Shown here: positions 15,786-63,399 of the stretch, in pieces
Layout: each line of letters starts with the position of its first letter
How positions within the stretch are numbered: the first letter of the stretch is position 1
NCBI GenBank assembly: GCA_965287045.1
Contig: OZ336874.1
Location: forward strand, 61,008,001 to 61,072,000
DNA from: Carcharhinus amblyrhynchos
Taxonomy: Eukaryota
DNA: 64,000 nucleotides
Reading direction: 5' to 3'
The notes under the pieces: generated by a model
What the model was told of the DNA's origin: nothing
The model's database searches: none
What the model saw: only the letters and a program-made list of their open reading frames with translations
Position numbers and translations under genes: made by a program

Positions 15786-16518
15786 TTAAAACACTTGCAG
15801 ACATATTTTTGCTATTCTTGGTTTTATTTCCATGACACTGACATTTGTTACAAACCTCCTTGACTAGATTCAAGGCTCCAAATTGCAACCTAGAATGTTC
15901 TTTGGCATCAATACTATTTATCCTTTAACAACCCTAAGATGGGTAGAAAATCTCATTTAAAAAATAAGGAATTTCAAATTTGACTAATCATATTTAAACG
16001 CGTGAAAGTTTGTTCCTTTGGCCAGTGAGTGTCTTTTTTGAATGTCTTGTTTCTGTGTGCAAAACACTTCAATCTTTTGTCCCCATGGCATATTTGACAA
16101 AATAATGGATTTGTATCATGACTGGCATGAAAGTGCAGAACAGGTTAAGCAATTAATAACTTGCAACCAGCCACAAATGCAAGCTTTCTGCCAAAACCCA
16201 TCAGCAATGCATCCATTGTGGAAAAATATAACAAGAAAAACTGTCAAATTTTTACTGCATTGGAATATTCAGATTTGTAGCAGACTAACTTTATAGGTAG
16301 TCTTCCACGTGGAACATGCTACTTATCACTTTGTAAACGTGTTTCCTGAACTAGCTCCAGTTCCTACTAGAACATGTTGTTAAATTCACACTGTTTTAAG
16401 TCACCAGTTCTCAGTGTCTGGAGTTGAACACCTGGCCCACTTGAGGCAACCAATAATTAAATAATCTCTTGAAAGCTTTGGCTGGGGTAATTCAAAAAAC
16501 AGAACCAGGGCATCATGA

Positions 16519-17192
16519 GGGGAAACCTCAGGTGATGGAGAGCACGCCGGTGGATGTCCCCCTTCAAAATAAGTACTCCTGCCTGAGTACTACTGGGGGG
16601 GGACAGCTCATCTGAGGGAGGCAGCAGCGACCAGGTCTCTGGAGCTGAGCCAGTATGTCAAAAAATTTAAAAAGAGAGCAGAAAGGTAGTACTAATAGGG
16701 GACTCCACAGTGAGGGGGGCGGACAGGCGTTTTTGTGGACGTAGACGTGAGTCGCGGATGGTGGTTTGTCTCCCTGGAGCTGGGATCCGGGATGTCTCTG
16801 GGCGTGTCCCAGACATACTGAAAGGGGAGGGTGAGGAACCGGAGGTTGTAGTGCATATAGGTACTGCTGACGTAGGCAAGAAGAGGGAGGCAGTCGTGAA
16901 AAGGGACTATAGGGAACTGGGTAGGCAGCTGAGGAAGAGGAAAGCGAAGGTAGTAATCTCAGGATTGCTGCCTGTGCCACGAGAGAATGAGGGCAGGAAT
17001 GGAATGAGGTGGAGGCTGAATGCGTGGCTGAGGGACTGGAGCAGGGGGCAGGGATTTTGGTTCCTAGATCATTGGGACCTCTTTAGGGGCAGGTGTGACC
17101 TGTACAGTAAAGATGGGTGGCACTTGAATCCCAGGGGGACTAATATCTTGGTGGGAAGACTGGCTAGGGCTACTGGGGGGACTTTAAACTAG
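16519..17192 (+). pseudogene. CR1 ORF1 (SGNH/GDSL esterase domain), 5'-truncated and disrupted
   Basis: Reads VLIGDSTVRG, CLPGA, VHIGTAD, SGLLP, DGWHLN. An in-frame TAA lies upstream of GDS, and the zinc-finger N-terminus is absent. Confidence 0.85.
17183..17192 (+). promoter_or_regulatory. Candidate -1 frameshift slippery site T_TTA_AAC_TAG
   Basis: X_XXY_YYZ heptamer in the ORF1 frame. Its -1 frame joins the reconstructed ORF2. Confidence 0.6.
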
Positions 17193-17228
17193 AAAGGATG
17201 GGGGGAGGGAATTGTAATGGGGAGACTG

Positions 17229-17329
17229 AGCCATGACAGATCAGCCATGATCTTATTGAATGGCGGGGCAGGCTCGAAGGGCTGGATGGCCTACTCCTGC
17301 TCCTATTTCTTATGTTCTTATGTTCTTAT
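17229..17329 (+). mobile_element. Family-B CR1 3' tail nested in the family-A element, TSD GACTG
   Basis: Matches 38349-38450. GACTG occurs at 17224-17228 and 17330-17334. Confidence 0.9.
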
Positions 17330-20300
17330 GACTGGGACCGAGGAGGTTAGCTCCCAGGTAGGGAAGGACTGCAGGCAGTATGAGAGGGAGGCTAGACAGG
17401 GGGTGAAGAAGGGAAATGCCCAGACTGAGGGGCTGAAGTGTATCTATTTTAACGCCAGGAGTGTAGTAAATAAGGTAGATGAGCTTAGGGCATGGATTGC
17501 TGCTTGGGAATGTGATGTGGTGGCCATTACGGAGACTTGGATGTCTCAGGGACAGGACTGGGTACTTCAGGTGCCAGGATTCAGATGCTTCAGGAAGGAC
17601 AGGGAGGGAGGCAAAAGAGGTGGTGGAGTGGCACTGTTGATCAGGGACAGTGTCATGGCTGCAGAGAAGGAGGATGCCGTGGAGGGACTATCTACAGAGT
17701 CTCTGTGGGTGGAAGTTAGGAACAGCAAAGGGTCGGAAACTTTGCTGGGCGTATTCTATAGGCCGCCCAATAGTGACAGGGAAGTTGAGGTGCAGCTAGG
17801 GAAACAGATTCTAGAGAGATGTAGTAATAACAGAGTTGTCGTGATGGGGGACTTCAATTTCCCAAACATCGATTGGAATATCCCAAGGGTAAGGGGTTTG
17901 GATGGGGAGGAGTTTGTTAGGTGTGTTCAGGAAGGTTTCCTGACACAGTACGTGGATAAGCCTACGAGAGGAGAGGCTGTACTTGACCTGGTACTGGCGA
18001 ATGAACCAGGACAGGTGACGGATCTCTCGGTAGGAGACCATCTTGGGAATGGTGATCATAATTCTATCTCCTTCACAATTGCATTGGAACGAGATAGGAT
18101 CAGGCAGGCTAGGAAGGTGTTTGTCTGGAGTAAGGAGAAATATGAAGACGTCAGGAAGTTAATTGGACAAATAAACTGGAAGGAGGCATTCTTGGGGAAA
18201 AGTACCGAAGGAAGGTGGCGGATATTCAAGGAATGTTTGTCTGGAGCTCTGCACGACAACATTCCGATGAGACAAGGAGGTTTTGGTAGGTCGCGGGAAC
18301 CGTGGTGCACCAAGGCTGTGGTGAACCTAGTCAGGAGGAAAAGGAAGGTGTACAAAAGGTTCAGGGAGCTAGGAGATGTTAAGGATCTTGAGGAGTATAA
18401 GGATTGTAGAAAGGAGCTTAAAAGGGAAATTAGGAGAGCCAGAAGGGGTCATGAGAAGGCCTTGGCGGGTAAGATTAAGGAGAATCCCAAGGCCTTCTAT
18501 AAATATGTGAAAAGTAAAAGGATGAGAAGAGAAGGGATAGGACCTATAAAAGGTGAAGGGGGAAAGGTCTGTGTGGAACCAGAAGAAATGGCAGAGGTGC
18601 TTAATGAGTACTTTGCCTCAGTATTCACGGTGGAAACTGATCTGGGAGATTTTGCTACAGGTTTGCAGCAAATGGAAAAGATTGAGTATGTGGATATTAA
18701 GGAAGAGGATGTGTTAGAACTTTTGAATTCTATCAAGATAGATAAGTCGCCAGGACCAGATGGGATGTACCCCAGGTTACTGTGGGAGGTGAGGGAGGTG
18801 ATTGCAGAGCCCCTGGCGATGATCTTTGCGTCGTCAATGGAGACGGGAGAGGTTCTGGAGGATTGGAGGATTGCGGATGTGGTTCCTATTTTCAAGAAAG
18901 GGAACAGAGATAGCCCGGGAAATTACCGACCGGTAAGTCTGACCTCAGTGGTTGGTAAGCTGATGGAGAGGCTTCTGAGGGACAAGATTTATGAGCATTT
19001 GGAGAGGTTTGGCATGATCAGAAATAGTCAACATGGTTTTGTCAAGGGCAGGTCGTGCCTTACGAGCCTAGTTGAGTTCTTTGAAAATGTGACTGAACAC
19101 GGTGACGAAGGAAGAGCAGTGGACGTGGTTTACATGGACTTCAGCAAGGCGTTTGATAAGGTCCCCCATGCAAGACTTCTAGAGAAGGTGAGAGGGCATG
19201 GGATCCAAGGGGCTTTGGCCTTGTGGATCTAGAACTGGCTTGCCTGCAGAAGGCAGAGAGTGGTTGTGGATGGGTCTTTTTCTGCATGGAGGTCAGTCAC
19301 CAGTGGAGTGCCCCAGGGATCTGTTCTAGGACCCTTGCTGTTTGTCATTTTCATAAATGACCTAGATGAGGAAGTGGTGGGATGGGTTAGTAAGTTCGCC
19401 GATGACACGAAGGTCGGTGGTGTTGTGGATGGTCTGGAAGGATGTCAGAAGTTGCAGCAGGACATAAATAGGATGCAGGACTGGACGGAGAAGTGGCAGA
19501 TAGACTTCAACGCGGATAAATGTGTAGTGGTCCATTTTGGCAGGACCAATGGGATGAACGAGTACACTATCAAGGGCAGGAGTCTTAGCAGTGTTGAAGA
19601 GCAGAAGGATCTTGGGGTTCGGGTCCACAGGACTCTTAAATCGGCCTCGCAGGTGGAGGATGTGGTCAAGAAGGCGTATGGTGTACTGGCCTTCATTAAT
19701 CGAGGGATTGAGTTTAGGAATCGGGAGGTAATGCTGCAACTTTATAAGACCTTTGTCAGGCCTCACTTGGAGTACTGTGCGCAGTTCTGGTCGCCTCACT
19801 ATAGGAAGGACGTAGAAGCTATTGAAAGGGTACAGAGGAGATTTACAAGGATGTTGCCTGGATTGGGAGGTATGCCTTATGAAGATAGGTTGAGGGAGCT
19901 GGGACTCTTCTCCCTGGAGAGACGAAGGTTGAGAGGCGACCTGATAGAGGTTTATAAAATGTTGAGAGGAATAGATAGGGTGGATTCTCAGAGGCTATTT
20001 CCCCGTGTTGAAATGGTCGCTACGAGAGGACACAGATTTAAGGTGCGGGGAGGAAAATACAGAAGTGATGTTAGGGGTAAGTTTTTCACTCAGAGGGTGG
20101 TGAGTGAATGGAATCGGCTGCCGTCAGTGGTGGTGGAGGCGAACTCGCTGGGGTCTTTTAAAAGACTTCTGGATGAGTATATGGGATTTAATGGGATTGG
20201 GGGTTATAGATAGGTCTATGGATTGGTAGGTATTGATGTGATCGGCGCAACTTGTGGGCCGAAGGGCCTGTTTGTGCTGTAGTGTTCTATGTTCTATGTT

Positions 20301-20814
20301 CTATGATGTTGATTAATCTTTCCATGGTTTTGGTATATCCAGGACTTCAATGTTCTCTCGCAAGAGCCTCTACCAAATTGATTGCTTTCAGGCTGCTGTA
20401 ATGTGCATTGGGCTTTAGAATTGGGAGAGAAACACAAATCAGGGCTACCAGAGATTGTCCTAAGCAGAATGTCAAGTTGTGGATTTTAATTAACTTTCTT
20501 TTCAATAAGCTGTCATCAAGTTTTCTCTAGAACTCTTCTTGTTAGAGTTTTAAATGCATCATGTTTTTTTCATGTGTTTTGATCTCAATTGAAGTGTAAA
20601 ACGCCAAATCTATTCTTTATAATTTATTGTTGTAGTTTGACAATTCCGTCCAAAGATGTAACTAATCTCACTGAGATGTCCACCCCTCTTCTGTTCCCCA
20701 ACCATGCGTCCCAATACTCTCACTGCCAGCCTGGCCCCGACAAGACATTAGACTCACCTCCAACACTGGCTCCAACACTGAACCCCTTTCAGCCCTTAAT
20801 CTTTAACCATGTGG

Positions 20815-56879: not shown

Positions 56880-58160
56880 GAGAGGGGGTTTCACTGTTCC
56901 CATTTGCCATGAGCAGGAATCCAAATGGCCCATTGAATAAAGCGTTGGGACTAACACGGGATTGCTGCCGGGCATCAAAGCATTTATGATTCATCTGGCC
57001 TGCCCTATTGGCCCCAATCAGATTCCTGACCAGAATGAGAGGGAACCTGATGATTATACAAAAGTGTTAAATTAAATGTCATTAGCAGGCTTGAAGCCTG
57101 ATTCAATGTCATCCATTCACCTGCCTCCCCAGCTGGACTTGCACTATGCAGGCTTTGGTGTTGGTCATGACCAGTGTGAACCTGGACCTGACCTCAATGC
57201 TGTGTTTAAAGAATGTGGCTGAGTGAGGAGCTATAGAGAAGGGAATTCCCCTCCTAGTGAAAGTGATTGACTTCTGTCACTCACAGGTCTTGAAAGGGAC
57301 CTTCTCACACTGCAGCTTCTGAAAGAGAGGAAAGAGAATCCGTCTGCTAAATGCAGTGCTACTGGGATTTGGAAGTCTAAGGGGAAGTTGTCGAGGAGAC
57401 ATGGAGATTAAACTGACCAATCCACTTCAAAGTTTTCAAAGTTGACTGACAGGAATGAATATTTTGATCATGGAGCTGCCAGTAATCATCATGCCAAGAG
57501 TGATCTTCAGATTTATCAGGGCTAGAAGGGATGAAACCCCCATCCCAGGAGAGAGTCAACTCCTTGCTGCTGTCCTGAGCCCATTCAATCCCCAGGACCC
57601 TTTGAAGACCCTTCCTCTGCAGAGCTGGCAGTGGCAGAGGGGCACATGGTCACTGGACATACTTCCTTGGCTGCTTCTTTTGGGGTCCAAAGTGCCCGCC
57701 CAGGGCATCACTGCAGTGGTATCAGTGCCAAGGGACAGTGCAAGGTTGGCACTTCTGGGGGGTTGGGGGGGAGCCTGAAATGGGATGGGAGGATGGGAGG
57801 AGCAGGGTTCAGGTCACAGAATGGTGTGGGGACGTGTATGTCGTTATTTTAGTGTGGGGGAGAATAGCCCTTTTTGGTCAGGGATTGGGCTTTCTGTCCT
57901 GGCCAGTGAGGAAGGTTATCATTTCCATTGTGAGAGGGAGTGGGCTTCCTGGTGAACGTAGAGGTCATGTTAAAAAGGGTGATTAAAACAGGCTCTGATC
58001 TCTGAACAGCCAGACCGTCTGGGGTGTTTCACATTCTTCATATGTTTGAATGGTAAAGATGGGTGAGTCCCACATGACAGGTGCAGTTAGTACCAGCAGG
58101 AAACACTCCTGTTTTCCCACTGTCGTGGGCACTTTAGAGCTGATTCAGTGAATCACAGCC
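56880..58160. mobile_element. Probable non-autonomous Harbinger-type insertion
   Basis: Interrupts the old CR1. Imperfect TIRs share ttcactg/cagtgaa, and it is flanked by ATA at 56877-56879 and 58161-58163. Confidence 0.5.
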
Positions 58161-58336
58161 ATAAAGGCAGATTACAAAGAACAAAGAACAAAGAACAACC
58201 CAGCACGGGAAACAGGCCCTTCGGCCCAACGAGCCCGCGCCGCCGCATCGCCCTACACCTATTCTACCCTGCATGTCTACGAATGGGACCCTACTCAGTC
58301 AGATTCAGGGAAGAAATAGTGTCAATTTGGTGGAAA

Positions 58337-58487
58337 CCAATTAGCCTAAGAGCACATCTTTGGGGTGTGGGAGGAAACCGGAGCGCCCGGAGGAAACCCA
58401 CGCAACCACAGGGAGAATGCGCAAACTCCCACAGACACAGGCCCAAATCCATGTATCTGCACAGCTAGCAGTGCTAGTCACTGAGCT
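58337..58487 (-). other. V-SINE central domain and A-box remnant inside the LINE 3' UTR
   Basis: ggaggaaaccggagcgcccggaggaaacccacgca...gagaatgcgcaaactcc matches the SINE bodies at 32985-33050 and 32225-32295. Confidence 0.9.
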
Positions 58488-58697
58488 GTTGTGGAGCCCG
58501 TCTATCGGTCCAGGATCAAGCACACACACCGACATGAAGTACTAGGCCACTCCTGGACTTCCAAGAGCAGCCCACGCACAACCCGCCGTGTGCATGCCCC
58601 TCGCTTGACACGAGGTGGACCTCCACCTGTGGAATAAAGACAAAACATATTAATCATACAGCCTGCCCTTCCGGTGTCTCCCGAGGTTTAACCCTAT

Positions 58698-61586
58698 TTA
58701 ATAGCCCCTACCATATCCCTCCATTCTCGTTTCACTCATGTGCCTATCTAACTGCATCTTAAACGAGTCCAACGTGCCTGCCTCCACCACCCTACTCGGT
58801 AGCGCATTCCAGACCCCCACAACTCTCTGTGTAAAGAACCTTCCTCTTACCTCCAAATTATACCTCCCCCCCCTCACCCTTAAGTGATGACCTCTCGTGT
58901 TCGTACCCAGTCTAGGGAGCAGTCTCTCACTATTAACTCTATCTATTCCCTTCAGTATCTTATATACCTCTATCATGTCCCCTCTCAATCTCCTTCTTTC
59001 CAAGGAGAATAGCCCCAGTCTCTTCAGTCTCTCCTCGTAACCCAGTCCCCCCATGCCAGGCAACATCCTGGTAAACCTCCTCTGCACCCTTTCCAGAGAC
59101 TCCACGTCCTTCCGGTAATAAGGTGACCAGAACTGGACGCAGTACTCCAAATGCGGTCTGACCAACGTTCTGTATAACTGAAGCATTAGACGGCAGCTTT
59201 TATACTCTAAGCCCCTTCCTATAAAGGCTAACATCCCATAAGCCTTCCTAACAACGTTCTCCACTTGTGACACAACCTTCATGGATTTGTGGACCTGCAC
59301 TCCCAGGTCTCTCTGTACGTCTATACTCCTAATCGGCCTACCTTTTATCACATAGCTCCCCTCTGCATTATTCCTTCCAAAATGCATCACCTCGCATTTG
59401 TCAGGATTAAACGCCATCTGCCACCTATCTGCCCACTGCACCAACCTGTCTATATCCTGTTGTATCACCTGACAATCCAGTTCTGTACCCGCCAACCCTG
59501 CCATCTTGGTGTCATCAGCAAACTTGCTGATCACACCACCTACTCCCTCTTCTAAGTCATTTATGTAGACTACAAAGAGGAGAGGTCCCAGTACCGAGCC
59601 CTGCGGCACACCACTGGTCACTGGCCTCCAGCCCGACAAGGTACCCTCCACAACTACCCTCTGTCTCCTATTTCCCAACCAGTTCTCAATCCACCTAGCT
59701 ACCTGGCCTCGTATCCCATGCGCCTTAACCTTTTCTACCAGCCTACCGTGAGGGACTTTGTCAAACGCCTTACTGAAATCCATATAGATGACATCAACGG
59801 CTCTCCCATCGTCAACCGTTTTTGTCACCTCCTCAAAGAATTCCACCAGATTCGTAAGGCAAGACCTCCCTCTAACAAAGCCATGTTGCGTATCCCTAAT
59901 CAGATCGCAACGTTCCAAATGCTCATACATCCTACCCCTAAGTATTTTTTCCATTAACTTCCCTACCACCGACGTCAAACTCACCGGCCTATAATTCCCA
60001 GGGTTATCCCTACTACCTTTTTTGAACAACGGGACCACATTTGCTACCCTCCAGTCTTCTGGGACCTCACCTGTGTCCAAAGAAGAGACAAAGATGTGCG
60101 CCAGAGGCCCAGCAATTTCATCTTTCGCCTCCCTAAGCAGCCTGGGATAAATACCATCAGGCCCCGGAGCTTTATCCGTCCTTACGCTACCTAAAAGCCC
60201 TAGCACTTCCTCTCTCGTAATAACTATATCCTGCAACTGCACCTCCGCTCCCTCCAAGAGACCGCACGATTCCGAACCCCTCTCCTTTGTGAATACCGAC
60301 GCAAAGTATTCATTCAGGAGCTCCCCCATTCCCTCCGACTCAATACACAACTCTCCACTCTTGTCCCTAAGAGGACCAATTTTCCCTCTAACTACTCTCT
60401 TGCCTCTAATATAGGAATAAAATGCCTTAGGATTATCCTTAATCCTACCGGCCAAAGCCATCTCATGCCCTCTCTTCGCCCTTCTAATTCCCCTTTTTAG
60501 CTCCCTCCTACTCTCTCTATATTCCTCCAGCGCACACTCCGTACCCATTTGTTTTGACCTAACATACGCCTCCCTCTTCCTCCTAACCAAGTCTTCAATA
60601 TCCCCTGTAATCCACGGCTCTCTAATCCTACCTTTCCCATCCTTTCGCTTAACCGGAACAAACCTCCCCTGCAACCATTTCATTTTGTCCCTAAAAGCCT
60701 CCCACTTGCCAACCGTGGACTTGCCAGCTAACATTCCCTCCCAGTCAGTTTGCTGCAGCTCCCTCCTAATCCTGCCATAGCTTGCCTTTCCCCAGTTCAG
60801 CACACTCCCGCTTGGACGGCACTCGTCCCTTTCCATTTTTATCCTAAAGTAGACGGACTTGTGGTCACTGTTTGCCACATGTTCGCCTACCTCTACCTCA
60901 CCCACCTGCCCTGGCTCGTTTCCCAACACTAAATCCAGTATAGCCCCTCCCCTAGTCGGGCAAGTTACATACTGTTCTAGCGACCCTTCCATAACACATT
61001 TCACAAACTCCTCTCCCTTCGTACCCCCAGCTCTAGGCCCCCTCCAATTCACTCCGGGAAAATTAAAATCACCCACTACAACCACTCTATTCTTTCTGCA
61101 CCTGTCCAAAATGCCCCTGCAAATTCCCTCCTCCACTGACTTTGGGCTGTTGGGTGGCCTATAGTACACCCCTAGCAGTGTGATCTCTCCCTTTTTATTC
61201 CTCAACTCCACCCACAACGACTCAATCCCTATCTCTTCCATATCGCCCTCCCTCTGCACTACTGTGATGTTTTCCTTGACTAACAGTGCCACCCCACCAC
61301 CTCTCTTCAACACTCCTCTGTCATACCTAAAACACCTGTACCCAGGAACATTCAGCTGCCAGTCCTGCCCTTCCCGTAACCACGTCTCCGTTACAGCCAC
61401 CACATCCAACTGCCTCACAAACATCAAGGCCCTAAGCTCATCCGTTTTCCCTGCCACACTCCTAGCATTGAAACAGACACAGTTCAACCCACAAACGTCC
61501 CTCGGAACCACCTTCTCCCTTATAATTTTCCTTTCACCTGTCTCTCTCCCAGCCACCTCCCCACCCCCCCTCCCTATTAGTTTAAA
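58698..61586 (-). CDS. CR1 ORF2: APE endonuclease + reverse transcriptase (start mechanism unresolved)
   Basis: Uninterrupted frame with FNARS, VTETW, GDFN, LDLVL, SDH, QHGFVRGRSC, DFSKAFD, GVPQGSVLGP, FADDTK. The frame opens at the slippery site, and the first ATG lies inside the APE domain. Confidence 0.93.
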   Translation of the reverse strand, partial: FKLIGRGGGEVAGRETGERKIIREKVVPRDVCGLNCVCFNARSVAGKTDELRALMFVRQLDVVAVTETWLREGQDWQLNVPGYRCFRYDRGVLKRGGGVALLVKENITVVQREGDMEEIGIESLWVELRNKKGEITLLGVYYRPPNSPKSVEEGICRGILDRCRKNRVVVVGDFNFPGVNWRGPRAGGTKGEEFVKCVMEGSLEQYVTCPTRGGAILDLVLGNEPGQVGEVEVGEHVANSDHKSVYFRIKMERDECRPSGSVLNWGKASYGRIRRELQQTDWEGMLAGKSTVGKWEAFRDKMKWLQGRFVPVKRKDGKGRIREPWITGDIEDLVRRKREAYVRSKQMGTECALEEYRESRRELKRGIRRAKRGHEMALAGRIKDNPKAFYSYIRGKRVVRGKIGPLRDKSGELCIESEGMGELLNEYFASVFTKERGSESCGLLEGAEVQLQDIVITREEVLGLLGSVRTDKAPGPDGIYPRLLREAKDEIAGPLAHIFVSSLDTGEVPEDWRVANVVPLFKKGSRDNPGNYRPVSLTSVVGKLMEKILRGRMYEHLERCDLIRDTQHGFVRGRSCLTNLVEFFEEVTKTVDDGRAVDVIYMDFSKAFDKVPHGRLVEKVKAHGIRGQVARWIENWLGNRRQRVVVEGTLSGWRPVTSGVPQGSVLGPLLFVVYINDLEEGVGGVISKFADDTKMAGLAGTELDCQVIQQDIDRLVQWADRWQMAFNPDKCEVMHFGRNNAEGSYVIKGRPIRSIDVQRDLGVQVHKSMKVVSQVENVVRKAYGMLAFIGRGLEYKSCRLMLQLYRTLVRPHLEYCVQFWSPYYRKDVESLERVQRRFTRMLPGMGGLGYEERLKRLGLFSLERRRLRGDMIEVYKILKGIDRVNSERLLPRLGTNTRGHHLRVRGGRYNLEVRGRFFTQRVVGVWNALPSRVVEAGTLDSFKMQLDRHMSETRMEGYGRGY
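61550..61586 (-). promoter_or_regulatory. Candidate -1 frameshift cassette: T_TTA_AAC_TAA + G-tract
   Basis: Heptamer at 61586-61580, a 5-nt spacer, then GGGAGGGGGGGTGGGGAGGTGG. Confidence 0.65.
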
Positions 61587-62467
61587 TCATTCCTGAACAC
61601 CCCAGCTAACCTCCCTGCTAAGACACTAGTCCCCCTCCCGTTCAAATCCTCCCCACCCCTCCTGTACAGTTGCCCTTCTCTCCTAAACACCTCCCAGTGA
61701 TCTACATAAATAAACCCCTCTCCCCTACACCAGTCCCTCAACCATGCATTCAACTGCATGATCTCGTCATTCTTAGCCCTGCTCGTACTGGGCAGCAACC
61801 CAGACAGTGCCACCCTAGAGGTCCTGCTCTTTAGTTTGGCCCCCAACTCCCTAAATTGCCTACGGACCTCTCCCCTACTCCTCCTTCCTATATCCCCCTC
61901 CCCTACGTGTACTATGACCTCTGCCTGGGTCCCCTCCCCTTTCAAAATTCCCTCTACCCTTTCCATTATATCCTTTACCCCTGCTCCAGGGAGGCAGACC
62001 ACCATCCTGGAGTCGCGCCCTTGCCCACAGAACCTCCTATCAATCCCTCGGACCCTCCCATCCCCTACCACTATCACCTTACCAGCCCCCTTCCGTCCCT
62101 CTAAATCAGTCTCCCCTTCCTTCCTATTTTTCTGTGCCCCTGCCGACGAACCTTGGGGGGCCTCCGGGGAGGCCGGGGGACCCTGACTACTCTTCTTCCT
62201 CTTTCCCCTCCTAACAGTCGTCCATCCTCCCTTCTCTTCAGCCCTTGAGACCTCCTCCTGCTCATGTTTCCCAGCCATTATCTCCTCATTCTCCCTAACT
62301 AGAAACGCATCTTCCAGTCGCCCCTCGAGTTGCCTGACCCGGGCCCTCAATCGCTGCAGTTCTAAACATTTACTGCAGATGTGTACCTTGGGGACCCGTG
62401 ACACCACCAGGAACTCCCACATGTGGCACCGGACGCAACTTACATTCCTCCCTATATTCCCTGCCAT
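61577..62467 (-). CDS. CR1 ORF1: zinc finger (CxxC...CxxC), leucine zipper, SGNH-fold domain, 296 aa
   Basis: ATG in GACATGG context. Reads CVRC...CSKC, LQRLRARVRQLEGRLE, VVGDG, CLPGA, SGLLP. Confidence 0.9.
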   Translation of the reverse strand: MAGNIGRNVSCVRCHMWEFLVVSRVPKVHICSKCLELQRLRARVRQLEGRLEDAFLVRENEEIMAGKHEQEEVSRAEEKGGWTTVRRGKRKKSSQGPPASPEAPQGSSAGAQKNRKEGETDLEGRKGAGKVIVVGDGRVRGIDRRFCGQGRDSRMVVCLPGAGVKDIMERVEGILKGEGTQAEVIVHVGEGDIGRRSRGEVRRQFRELGAKLKSRTSRVALSGLLPSTSRAKNDEIMQLNAWLRDWCRGEGFIYVDHWEVFRREGQLYRRGGEDLNGRGTSVLAGRLAGVFRNDLN

Positions 62468-62583
62468 GTCCCAACCTCCTGTAAGTGCCCAAGGTAGAAA
62501 TCTGTCACTCACCTTCTCTAAGCCTGCACTCGCCTAAGCCCAGCAAGCCAAAGCCCTTCTCACTCAGTTCCCACTCACTCTGC

Positions 62584-62703
62584 TGCCCGCTCTATACTGC
62601 TACCCCTTTTTTATACCCCCCGCTCCCCCTTAACGACTATCCCCTGGCCTAACTTCCGGTACGGAAGTAAACTACACTCTAACAAGCCCCGAGAACCGGA
62701 AGT
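62584..62703 (-). promoter_or_regulatory. Candidate internal Pol II promoter: three ETS-type motifs, TATA box, CA start
   Basis: CGGAAGT-core motifs at 62652-62660, 62661-62668 and 62695-62703. TATAAAAAA at 62615-62607, with a CA dinucleotide 31 nt downstream. Confidence 0.55.
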
Positions 62704-62779
62704 ACAGGAAAAAAGCGGTTTTCACTTTAAATCAGTCACTCACCACAGCCACAGCCACCAGGTTCAATGCTCCGGAGAA

Positions 62780-63170
62780 CAGATTGTAAAACCTCCTTTA
62801 GGCATGGGTAAAGGAAAAGATTAGTAAGGACAAATATGGGTCCATTATATCTGAAAACTGGGGAATTTATAATGGAGAATATAGAAATGGTGGAGAAATA
62901 AAACAATTACTTTGTGTACTTACTTTCTGATTTAGAAAATCTTCCAGAATAAATAGGGAACCAAGCGATTTGTGAAAATGGGGAATTAAAAGAAATACAT
63001 ATTAATAAAGAGGTAGTACTTGAAAAATTAATTGGATTTAAATTTGATAAATCCAGTGGGCTAGATTAGCTACATCTCAGATTGTTGAAGAACGTGAATT
63101 TAGAGATAGTGGTGGGGGGATGCTGACTCAATGGGCTGAATGGTCTCCTTCTGCACTGCAGAGGTTCTAT
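62780..63170 (+). mobile_element. Old CR1 fragment (right part) ending in a CR1 tail
   Basis: Reads KRLVRTNMGPL, NNYFV, VLEKLIGFKFDKSSG. Tail is gggctgaatggtctccttctgcactgcagaggttctatg. Confidence 0.8.
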
Positions 63171-63399
63171 GAAACCTTTTTTCAAAGGACAACAACATCA
63201 GCAATCTATCTTTCTATGTACCTTATGTTTTTGTAGTTAGATTCTTGCAAAACTCATCTGCACCCTCTGAAATGCCTTTGCATTCTTCCTGAAGTGCTAC
63301 GCCCAGGATTGGACAGTGTGGCATTTTACCATTTTTTTATCTTAGTGCTGGTTGGTCTTGAAGCTGGGAAAGTTTCTGATCTGTCTTTTGGGCATGTTT

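Follow-up and report, generated by a model that had tools for sequence, protein, structure and literature searches.

The window analyzed here is a stretch of 64,000 nucleotides from Carcharhinus amblyrhynchos (contig OZ336874.1 of assembly GCA_965287045.1, positions 61,008,001 to 61,072,000). Its reverse strand contains a full-length long interspersed element (LINE), which we take, from its architecture, to belong to the CR1 clade, and both open reading frames (ORFs) of the element lie between two splice donors near its 5' end and an acceptor in its 3' untranslated region (UTR). We consider it probable that this CR1 lineage keeps both ORFs flanked by splice signals, with a short leader and a donor before them and an acceptor on the 3' side, and that short copies in sister families, in which the leader is joined to the 3' exon, come from occasional splicing, are copied by the ORF2 protein (ORF2p) and are likely dead ends.

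Such joined copies are present at 26 distinct genomic loci (19 plus 7), in each of which the leader is fused to the 3' exon exactly at the homologue of the donor at 62743. A probe for a family 75% identical to the window element has 120 matches. Among the 100 listed, 14 terminate in the final four bases of the leader, and each of these agrees with it over at least 7 nt and up to its whole length. A general probe has 17 matches, 14 of them real, and adds five members of the same family together with L343, which belongs to a subfamily ~80% identical to the window element, has the same last leader bases, and for which matching parents are found. All six matches to a further probe are joined copies, as are L347 and L248, bringing the total to 26, and seven of the 26 are from subfamilies with other exon starts. 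Six joined copies reach the first bases of the element, five of them with lengths of 482–486 nt, and the complete joined product is ~0.49 kb. The copies carry the marks of retrotransposition, being dispersed, with their own tail, variable 5' truncation, and target duplications; duplications of 5–6 bp were found by eye in four of the 22 copies listed (L233, L244, L337 and L350). Parents exist, with 94 of 100 listed leader matches running into the donor and six into the 3' exon. The acceptor is present in cis in 27 of 40 parents fetched, mostly 4.0–4.4 kb away (about 4.2 kb), and the other 13 have no acceptor inside the fetched stretch.

These copies place both ORFs inside a usable intron at the level of the lineage, as the preliminary description of this DNA had proposed from the window alone. 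The junction that it put forward, from 62512 to 58627, was not found: there are no exact matches in the genome in the window's family, and no joint at this downstream donor (donor 2) in the sister families. All of the joints use the upstream donor (donor 1). Of the short RNA of ~0.5–0.7 kb that was predicted, the lower size therefore stands, at ~0.49 kb via donor 1, and the 0.7 kb form does not.

All three splice sites are where they had been described. The donors AAG/GTGAGT and GTG/GTGAGT start at 62512 and 62743 respectively, the first lying 45 nt before the ORF1 ATG, and the pyrimidine-rich acceptor, one of only two within 58000–63300, ends at 58627, 71 nt past the ORF2 stop. Splicing from 62512 would remove 3886 nt, as had been calculated, and splicing from 62743 would remove 4117 nt. 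There are nine donor-like 6-mers in the stretch, so that the donor motif alone is no evidence, and the evidence comes from conservation and from the joined copies.

To examine conservation, 15 full-length elements were aligned; at ORF2 fourfold sites the six most distant have identities of 0.56–0.60, and both donors, and the tract with its YAG, persist in the lineage at this divergence. Donor 1 has 0.89–1.00 identity in all 14 aligned relatives (0.89 in the six most distant), and the next 48 nt past it have 0.38–0.50 in those six. Donor 2 has 0.89–1.00 identity in five of the six; it is lost through a deletion in L319 and displaced through a deletion in L366. The bases just inside each donor have 0.32–0.50 identity in the most distant relatives. 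The acceptor tract holds 11–13 pyrimidines in 15 positions at ~0.5 sequence identity (in 11 of the 15 aligned elements, located by motif), and because it is conserved in composition and not in sequence, with insertions and deletions right behind the AG, it behaves like a splice signal. All 30 copies chosen through a downstream motif retain the acceptor, and in the sister family, for which a separate motif has 2037 matches, 29 of 30 examined extend to the acceptor and 28 retain the AG, although the upstream UTR varies in length and sequence between subfamilies. Under a neutral null at fourfold-site divergence, which is one pairwise comparison, the acceptor is kept in 7% of draws, each donor in 3%, and all three in 0.006%; the motif used to find the sister parents already specifies the GT with which the intron begins at donor 1, and the factor for this donor is thus partly built in. 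In L107 and L123, whose 5' ends were met by chance, both donors are retained. At the level of sequence, this conservation demonstrates selection on the splice sites, and its cause is a guess to which we return below.

Spliced copies are rare. In the 75% family there are 3081 unspliced acceptors and 14 spliced copies, a spliced share of ~0.4% of copies reaching the site in this counted sister (a lower bound). When 14 spliced and 32 unspliced rows of the 3' exon are placed on a tree (L314 and L183, which are short or long-branched, and 13 junction-start rows being excluded), the spliced rows need nine changes, of which at least four are forced by well-supported branches. A single clade of spliced copies is rejected (p-AU 1.7e-6; bootstraps not yet settled), which rules out one master copy for all of them. 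Being rare and scattered among unspliced copies, they look like recurrent by-products with many independent origins rather than a self-copying SINE (short interspersed element), and they are likely dead ends. The earlier proposal of a mobilisable SINE-like RNA is thus borne out insofar as the RNA was retrotransposed in the sister families; the product lacks the behavior of a SINE family that has master copies of its own.

The window's own family is young, with at least 12 further loci that are 100% identical over 58470–58720 (13 of 40 scored matches, the window copy included, share the top score over this interval). Exact matches to a motif of 21 nt at the acceptor number 1725, giving at least 1725 copies, and leader-donor matches number 315. 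A donor-1 junction probe with one mismatch allowed has two matches, both in unrelated sequence. A probe with any purine at position -3, which catches joints from either donor, has 14 matches in this family, none with leader sequence: five are point variants of the acceptor, one is a chance match and eight start at the exon boundary. Starts at the boundary (eight of 14 matches) are in excess of those at two control sites (0/12 and 0/6). Four of the boundary fillers are reverse-complementary to the sequence that follows directly, with matches of 4–6 nt versus 2 for the acceptor, one is target sequence and one is an inverted piece of the flank. On these origins (fold-back, target and inverted flank) we rejected the eight as splicing products; they are best read as an artefact of reverse transcription, because a near-palindrome begins at 58628 and four of the fillers match its fold-back. 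The near-palindrome (58628–58613) likely causes a 5'-truncation hotspot with fold-back filler (e.g. L093, L095, L097 and L101). Capture of host exons by the junction-start copies was also considered and dropped, the fillers, read by eye, being just a few bases. L245 (G000:C40), which starts at the exon boundary, lies in what by eye resembles zinc-finger-coding DNA. In the sister families, several copies (L405–L423) have unrelated flank up to the exact point where the 3' exon begins, at a frequency not clearly over the truncation background.

The sequence of events that we favor can be outlined as follows. The unspliced RNA would be the normal template, and occasionally donor 1 would be joined to the acceptor to give a 0.49-kb RNA that keeps the tail. 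This RNA encodes nothing and so must be mobilised in trans, presumably via its tail by ORF2p from a full-length element; by analogy with known stringent LINEs, the 3' tail is likely a recognition signal for ORF2p. The body of the promoter-like monomer at the 5' end lies inside the intron, so a spliced copy would lack both RNA polymerase II (Pol II) and Pol III promoters, and with the ETS/TATA part lost with the intron and the tRNA B-box already deleted it would not be transcribed again and would stop there. The acceptor and the SINE body likely entered the lineage in one event, in which an ancestral element acquired a new 3' end that already contained the SINE. Our best guess for the retention of the sites is that first- and last-exon signals help the full-length RNA to be transcribed and processed at its 3' end while splicing is held low; we favor this explanation first and a tissue-regulated off-switch second. 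The idea that the intron serves to evade HUSH is weakened by one report in which a spliced stuffer flanked by splice sites gave no protection (PMC8770142). The young family has likely cut splicing further, possibly through pairing of its pyrimidine tract, which is predicted to be unpaired at 0.28 versus 0.64–0.75 in the other families.

Several observations weigh against this interpretation. The evidence for splicing comes from the sister families, and none comes from the window element or its family, in which at least 1725 copies include not a single joined one (Fisher p 0.0035 versus the sister rate); the spliced genomic copies with target duplications that the preliminary description had asked about thus exist, 26 of them and some with duplications, in sisters and not in the family for which they were proposed. 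The pairing data are mixed, as the acceptor AG is unpaired at 0.69 in the young family versus 0.32–0.83 in the others, and because this AG is not predicted to be paired, occlusion of the tract is only a lead from the modelled folds. There is mild clustering of spliced rows in the tree (5 of 500 shuffles are as low), and L427 and L428 (G000:C26), which are 112 kb apart, 95% identical and differ in their flanks, have in common a leader variant absent from unspliced copies; the pair may go back to a parent that has since been lost or to a single secondary round of copying, and there may be a little secondary copying of spliced forms. The donor and acceptor have a 3-nt microhomology in common. Lastly, donor 2 is conserved like donor 1 yet is without any joint, and our model does not explain this unused donor except via a role other than splicing.

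A more ambitious proposal is that the LINE has been selected as a two-exon gene with its coding region in a retained intron, such that regulated splicing switches between the transposing RNA and a self-mobilisable non-coding RNA with the SINE domain, with subfamilies tuning the switch and the short form seeding SINE-like elements; we regard this as a tentative possibility. Unlikely too, in our view, is a regulated switch in which the intron is efficiently removed in the soma or in most cells, silencing the element, and retained in the germ line, with the spliced copies being a germ-line leak. It would account for the consensus-strength donor, the branch-point-like motif and the tract being kept across long divergence, and for a product that loses both ORFs at once, and as genomic copies reflect only germ-line RNA, the 0.4% share would be uninformative on the soma. 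On the other side, contigs from runs of related organisms that we guess to be RNA have no leader joint among the 15 listed of 43; although contigs end at 58627–58628 in runs X9 and X3, they do so likewise in X14, the largest run and probably genomic. The splice sites had also been suggested to soften the effect of sense insertions in genes, which would be doubtful given that 5' truncation has left the majority of copies with the acceptor alone.

It is improbable that the selected entity is the 0.49-kb structured non-coding RNA itself, with its SINE central domain aiding, titrating or limiting the ORF2 machinery. The SINE part is 0.81–0.94 identical among relatives versus 0.78–0.80 for ORF2 DNA (and 0.56–0.60 at fourfold sites), and the 3' exon, which in the short RNA includes ~125 nt of hairpin-forming sequence before the SINE, has a better predicted fold than each of 100 shuffled sequences and has no conserved ORF and no match in Rfam. 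However, full-length RNA holds the same sequence and could itself be the target of the constraint, covariation is thin, with two-sided change in just six of 111 predicted pairs, and the youngest and successful family left no spliced copy. We give even less credence to the motifs being kept for DNA-level or structural reasons (e.g. factor binding) with accidental splicing. There is a precedent in a human L1 donor reported to overlap a RUNX3 site (PMC5860796), both donors are in the promoter-like region, and donor 2 is conserved but unused; the acceptor tract, on the other hand, is conserved by composition with insertions and deletions behind its AG, and is 4 kb from the promoter. Finally, it is very improbable that the short copies arose without splicing, as deletions at the 3-nt microhomology during template switching or DNA repair, for although some of these elements have internal deletions, the 26 copies are from several subfamilies with different flanking bases and the same GT-AG pair, and a probe for a leader-to-ORF1-start joint (splicing within the 5' UTR) is at chance level (21 versus 23 control matches).

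The features of the window element are listed in Table 1. It is flanked by a 5-bp target duplication (62785–62781 and 58173–58169; flanks read), and shows traits of the CR1 group, including a 3' end of short tandem repeats without poly(A) and frequent 5' truncation. ORF1 has a match to Pfam Lipase_GDSL_2 (E 4.5e-6, 27.7 bits, under the cut-off of 32.9) that suggests a weak resemblance to GDSL/SGNH-like esterases, and in ORF2 RVT_1 and Exo_endo_phos exceed the Pfam cut-off. An AT-rich motif at the ORF2 stop (58703–58693) is kept across subfamilies and in some is polyadenylation-signal-like. A second CR1 element in the window (~16500–20305, forward strand) is 65–70% identical and has a short 3' UTR without the acceptor and the SINE body.

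Table 1. Features of the CR1-type element (coordinates in the window)
Feature	Coordinates	Strand	Remarks
Full-length young CR1-type LINE	58174..62781	-	Single 5' monomer; copy ends cluster at 62781 and ~58175
Promoter-like monomer, 172 nt	62610..62781	-	Presumed ETS-like motifs and TATA-like box (62615-62609)
Leader exon, 38 nt	62744..62781	-	Homologue is the piece fused to the 3' exon in spliced copies; 30 nt in the sister family, measured from the same start
Donor 1	62738..62746	-	Homologue is used in joined copies
Donor 2	62507..62515	-	Conserved; no joint in any family searched
ORF1, 296 aa	61577..62467	-	Open; ATG at 62467
ORF2, 908 aa from first ATG	58698..61424	-	Open; endonuclease and reverse transcriptase; stop ends at 58698
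Branch-point-like motif, pyrimidine tract and YAG acceptor	58627..58659	-	
Near-palindrome at exon start, 16 nt	58613..58628	-	Restricted to young subfamilies
3' exon, 453 nt	58174..58626	-	No conserved ORF; predicted structured (z -3.4)
SINE body, likely captured	58337..58499	-	Decayed tRNA-like head (58499-58447) and central domain (58446-58337)
3' tail	58174..58244	-	Stem-loop and short tandem repeat

The 5' region suggests that the monomer is a promoter. In copies with several monomers these are in tandem with a 201-nt period that includes a 29-nt linker (L036, L052, L108 and L123), and the same 29-nt joint is present in contigs of run X1. The 201-nt monomer ends at the TATA-like box and the next starts ~30 nt below it, which is the start of most full-length copies, and every round would cost an array one monomer. 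The linker has a donor-like motif on its antisense strand. The 5' end of another repeat family (L111:5740-6200) has nearly the same first bases and a donor-like site ~65 nt in.

The SINE body can be aligned to four SINEs that stand free elsewhere in the window, and its central domain is presumably what has been called the V-domain. The tRNA-like head lacks 18 nt around the B-box, and by its sequence the 3'-exon SINE has no intact internal Pol III promoter. The 18 nt are still there in the older subfamily L216 (L216:1620-1830), from which we infer that the LINE likely captured a SINE, rather than the other way round. HE1 SINEs have a tRNA-like head, a conserved central domain and a CR1-type tail, and the SINE body in the window is similar in all three. 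It departs from HE1 in lying inside the 3' UTR of a LINE with its B-box region deleted, and in that the short form starts with the LINE leader and not with a Pol III head. A table row pairs the V-SINE HE1 of sharks and rays with its partner LINE HER1 (PMC3747384).

Spliced transcripts of L1 and of a zebrafish LINE were reportedly described by Belancio in 2006 and Tamura in 2007. In one account, these involve multiple sites within the element (PMC3091869). The closest known case is that of the human L1 SpIREs, which are rare retroposed spliced copies (~2% of full-length events), some of them needing proteins in trans, and which resemble the copies here in their rarity, single shared 5' UTR donor, promoter loss and fate as dead ends (PMC5860796). 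The SpIRE acceptors are described as lying early in ORF1 or in the 5' UTR, which leaves ORF2 in place (PMC5860796), whereas the 3' UTR acceptor of the present element removes both ORFs; nothing in the product is coding, and the acceptor region is conserved although no coding constraint acts on it. The window element is like other vertebrate CR1 elements in its endonuclease and reverse transcriptase ORF2, its repeat-ended tail and, putatively, an esterase-like ORF1, and 5' tandem subunits are reported for some ORF1-less CR1 elements (PMC13343379). The string 'splic' is absent from the main text of the same survey, and the literature searched, with repeat databases and most subscription papers lying outside it, has no report of a conserved intron around the whole coding region with a SINE-bearing last exon in CR1.

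Splicing of LINEs is usually taken to be purely harmful, and the presence of splice sites is put down to other constraints. In this lineage, two donors and a dedicated acceptor in the 3' UTR have survived ~40% neutral-site divergence, and sister families yield copies without both ORFs, making it a question testable with a few point mutations why a LINE keeps an intron. The conservation of the SINE central domain above that of ORF2 DNA offers an assay for the long-standing question of the function of this domain, and the thousands of truncated copies that retain a strong acceptor could trap host exons.

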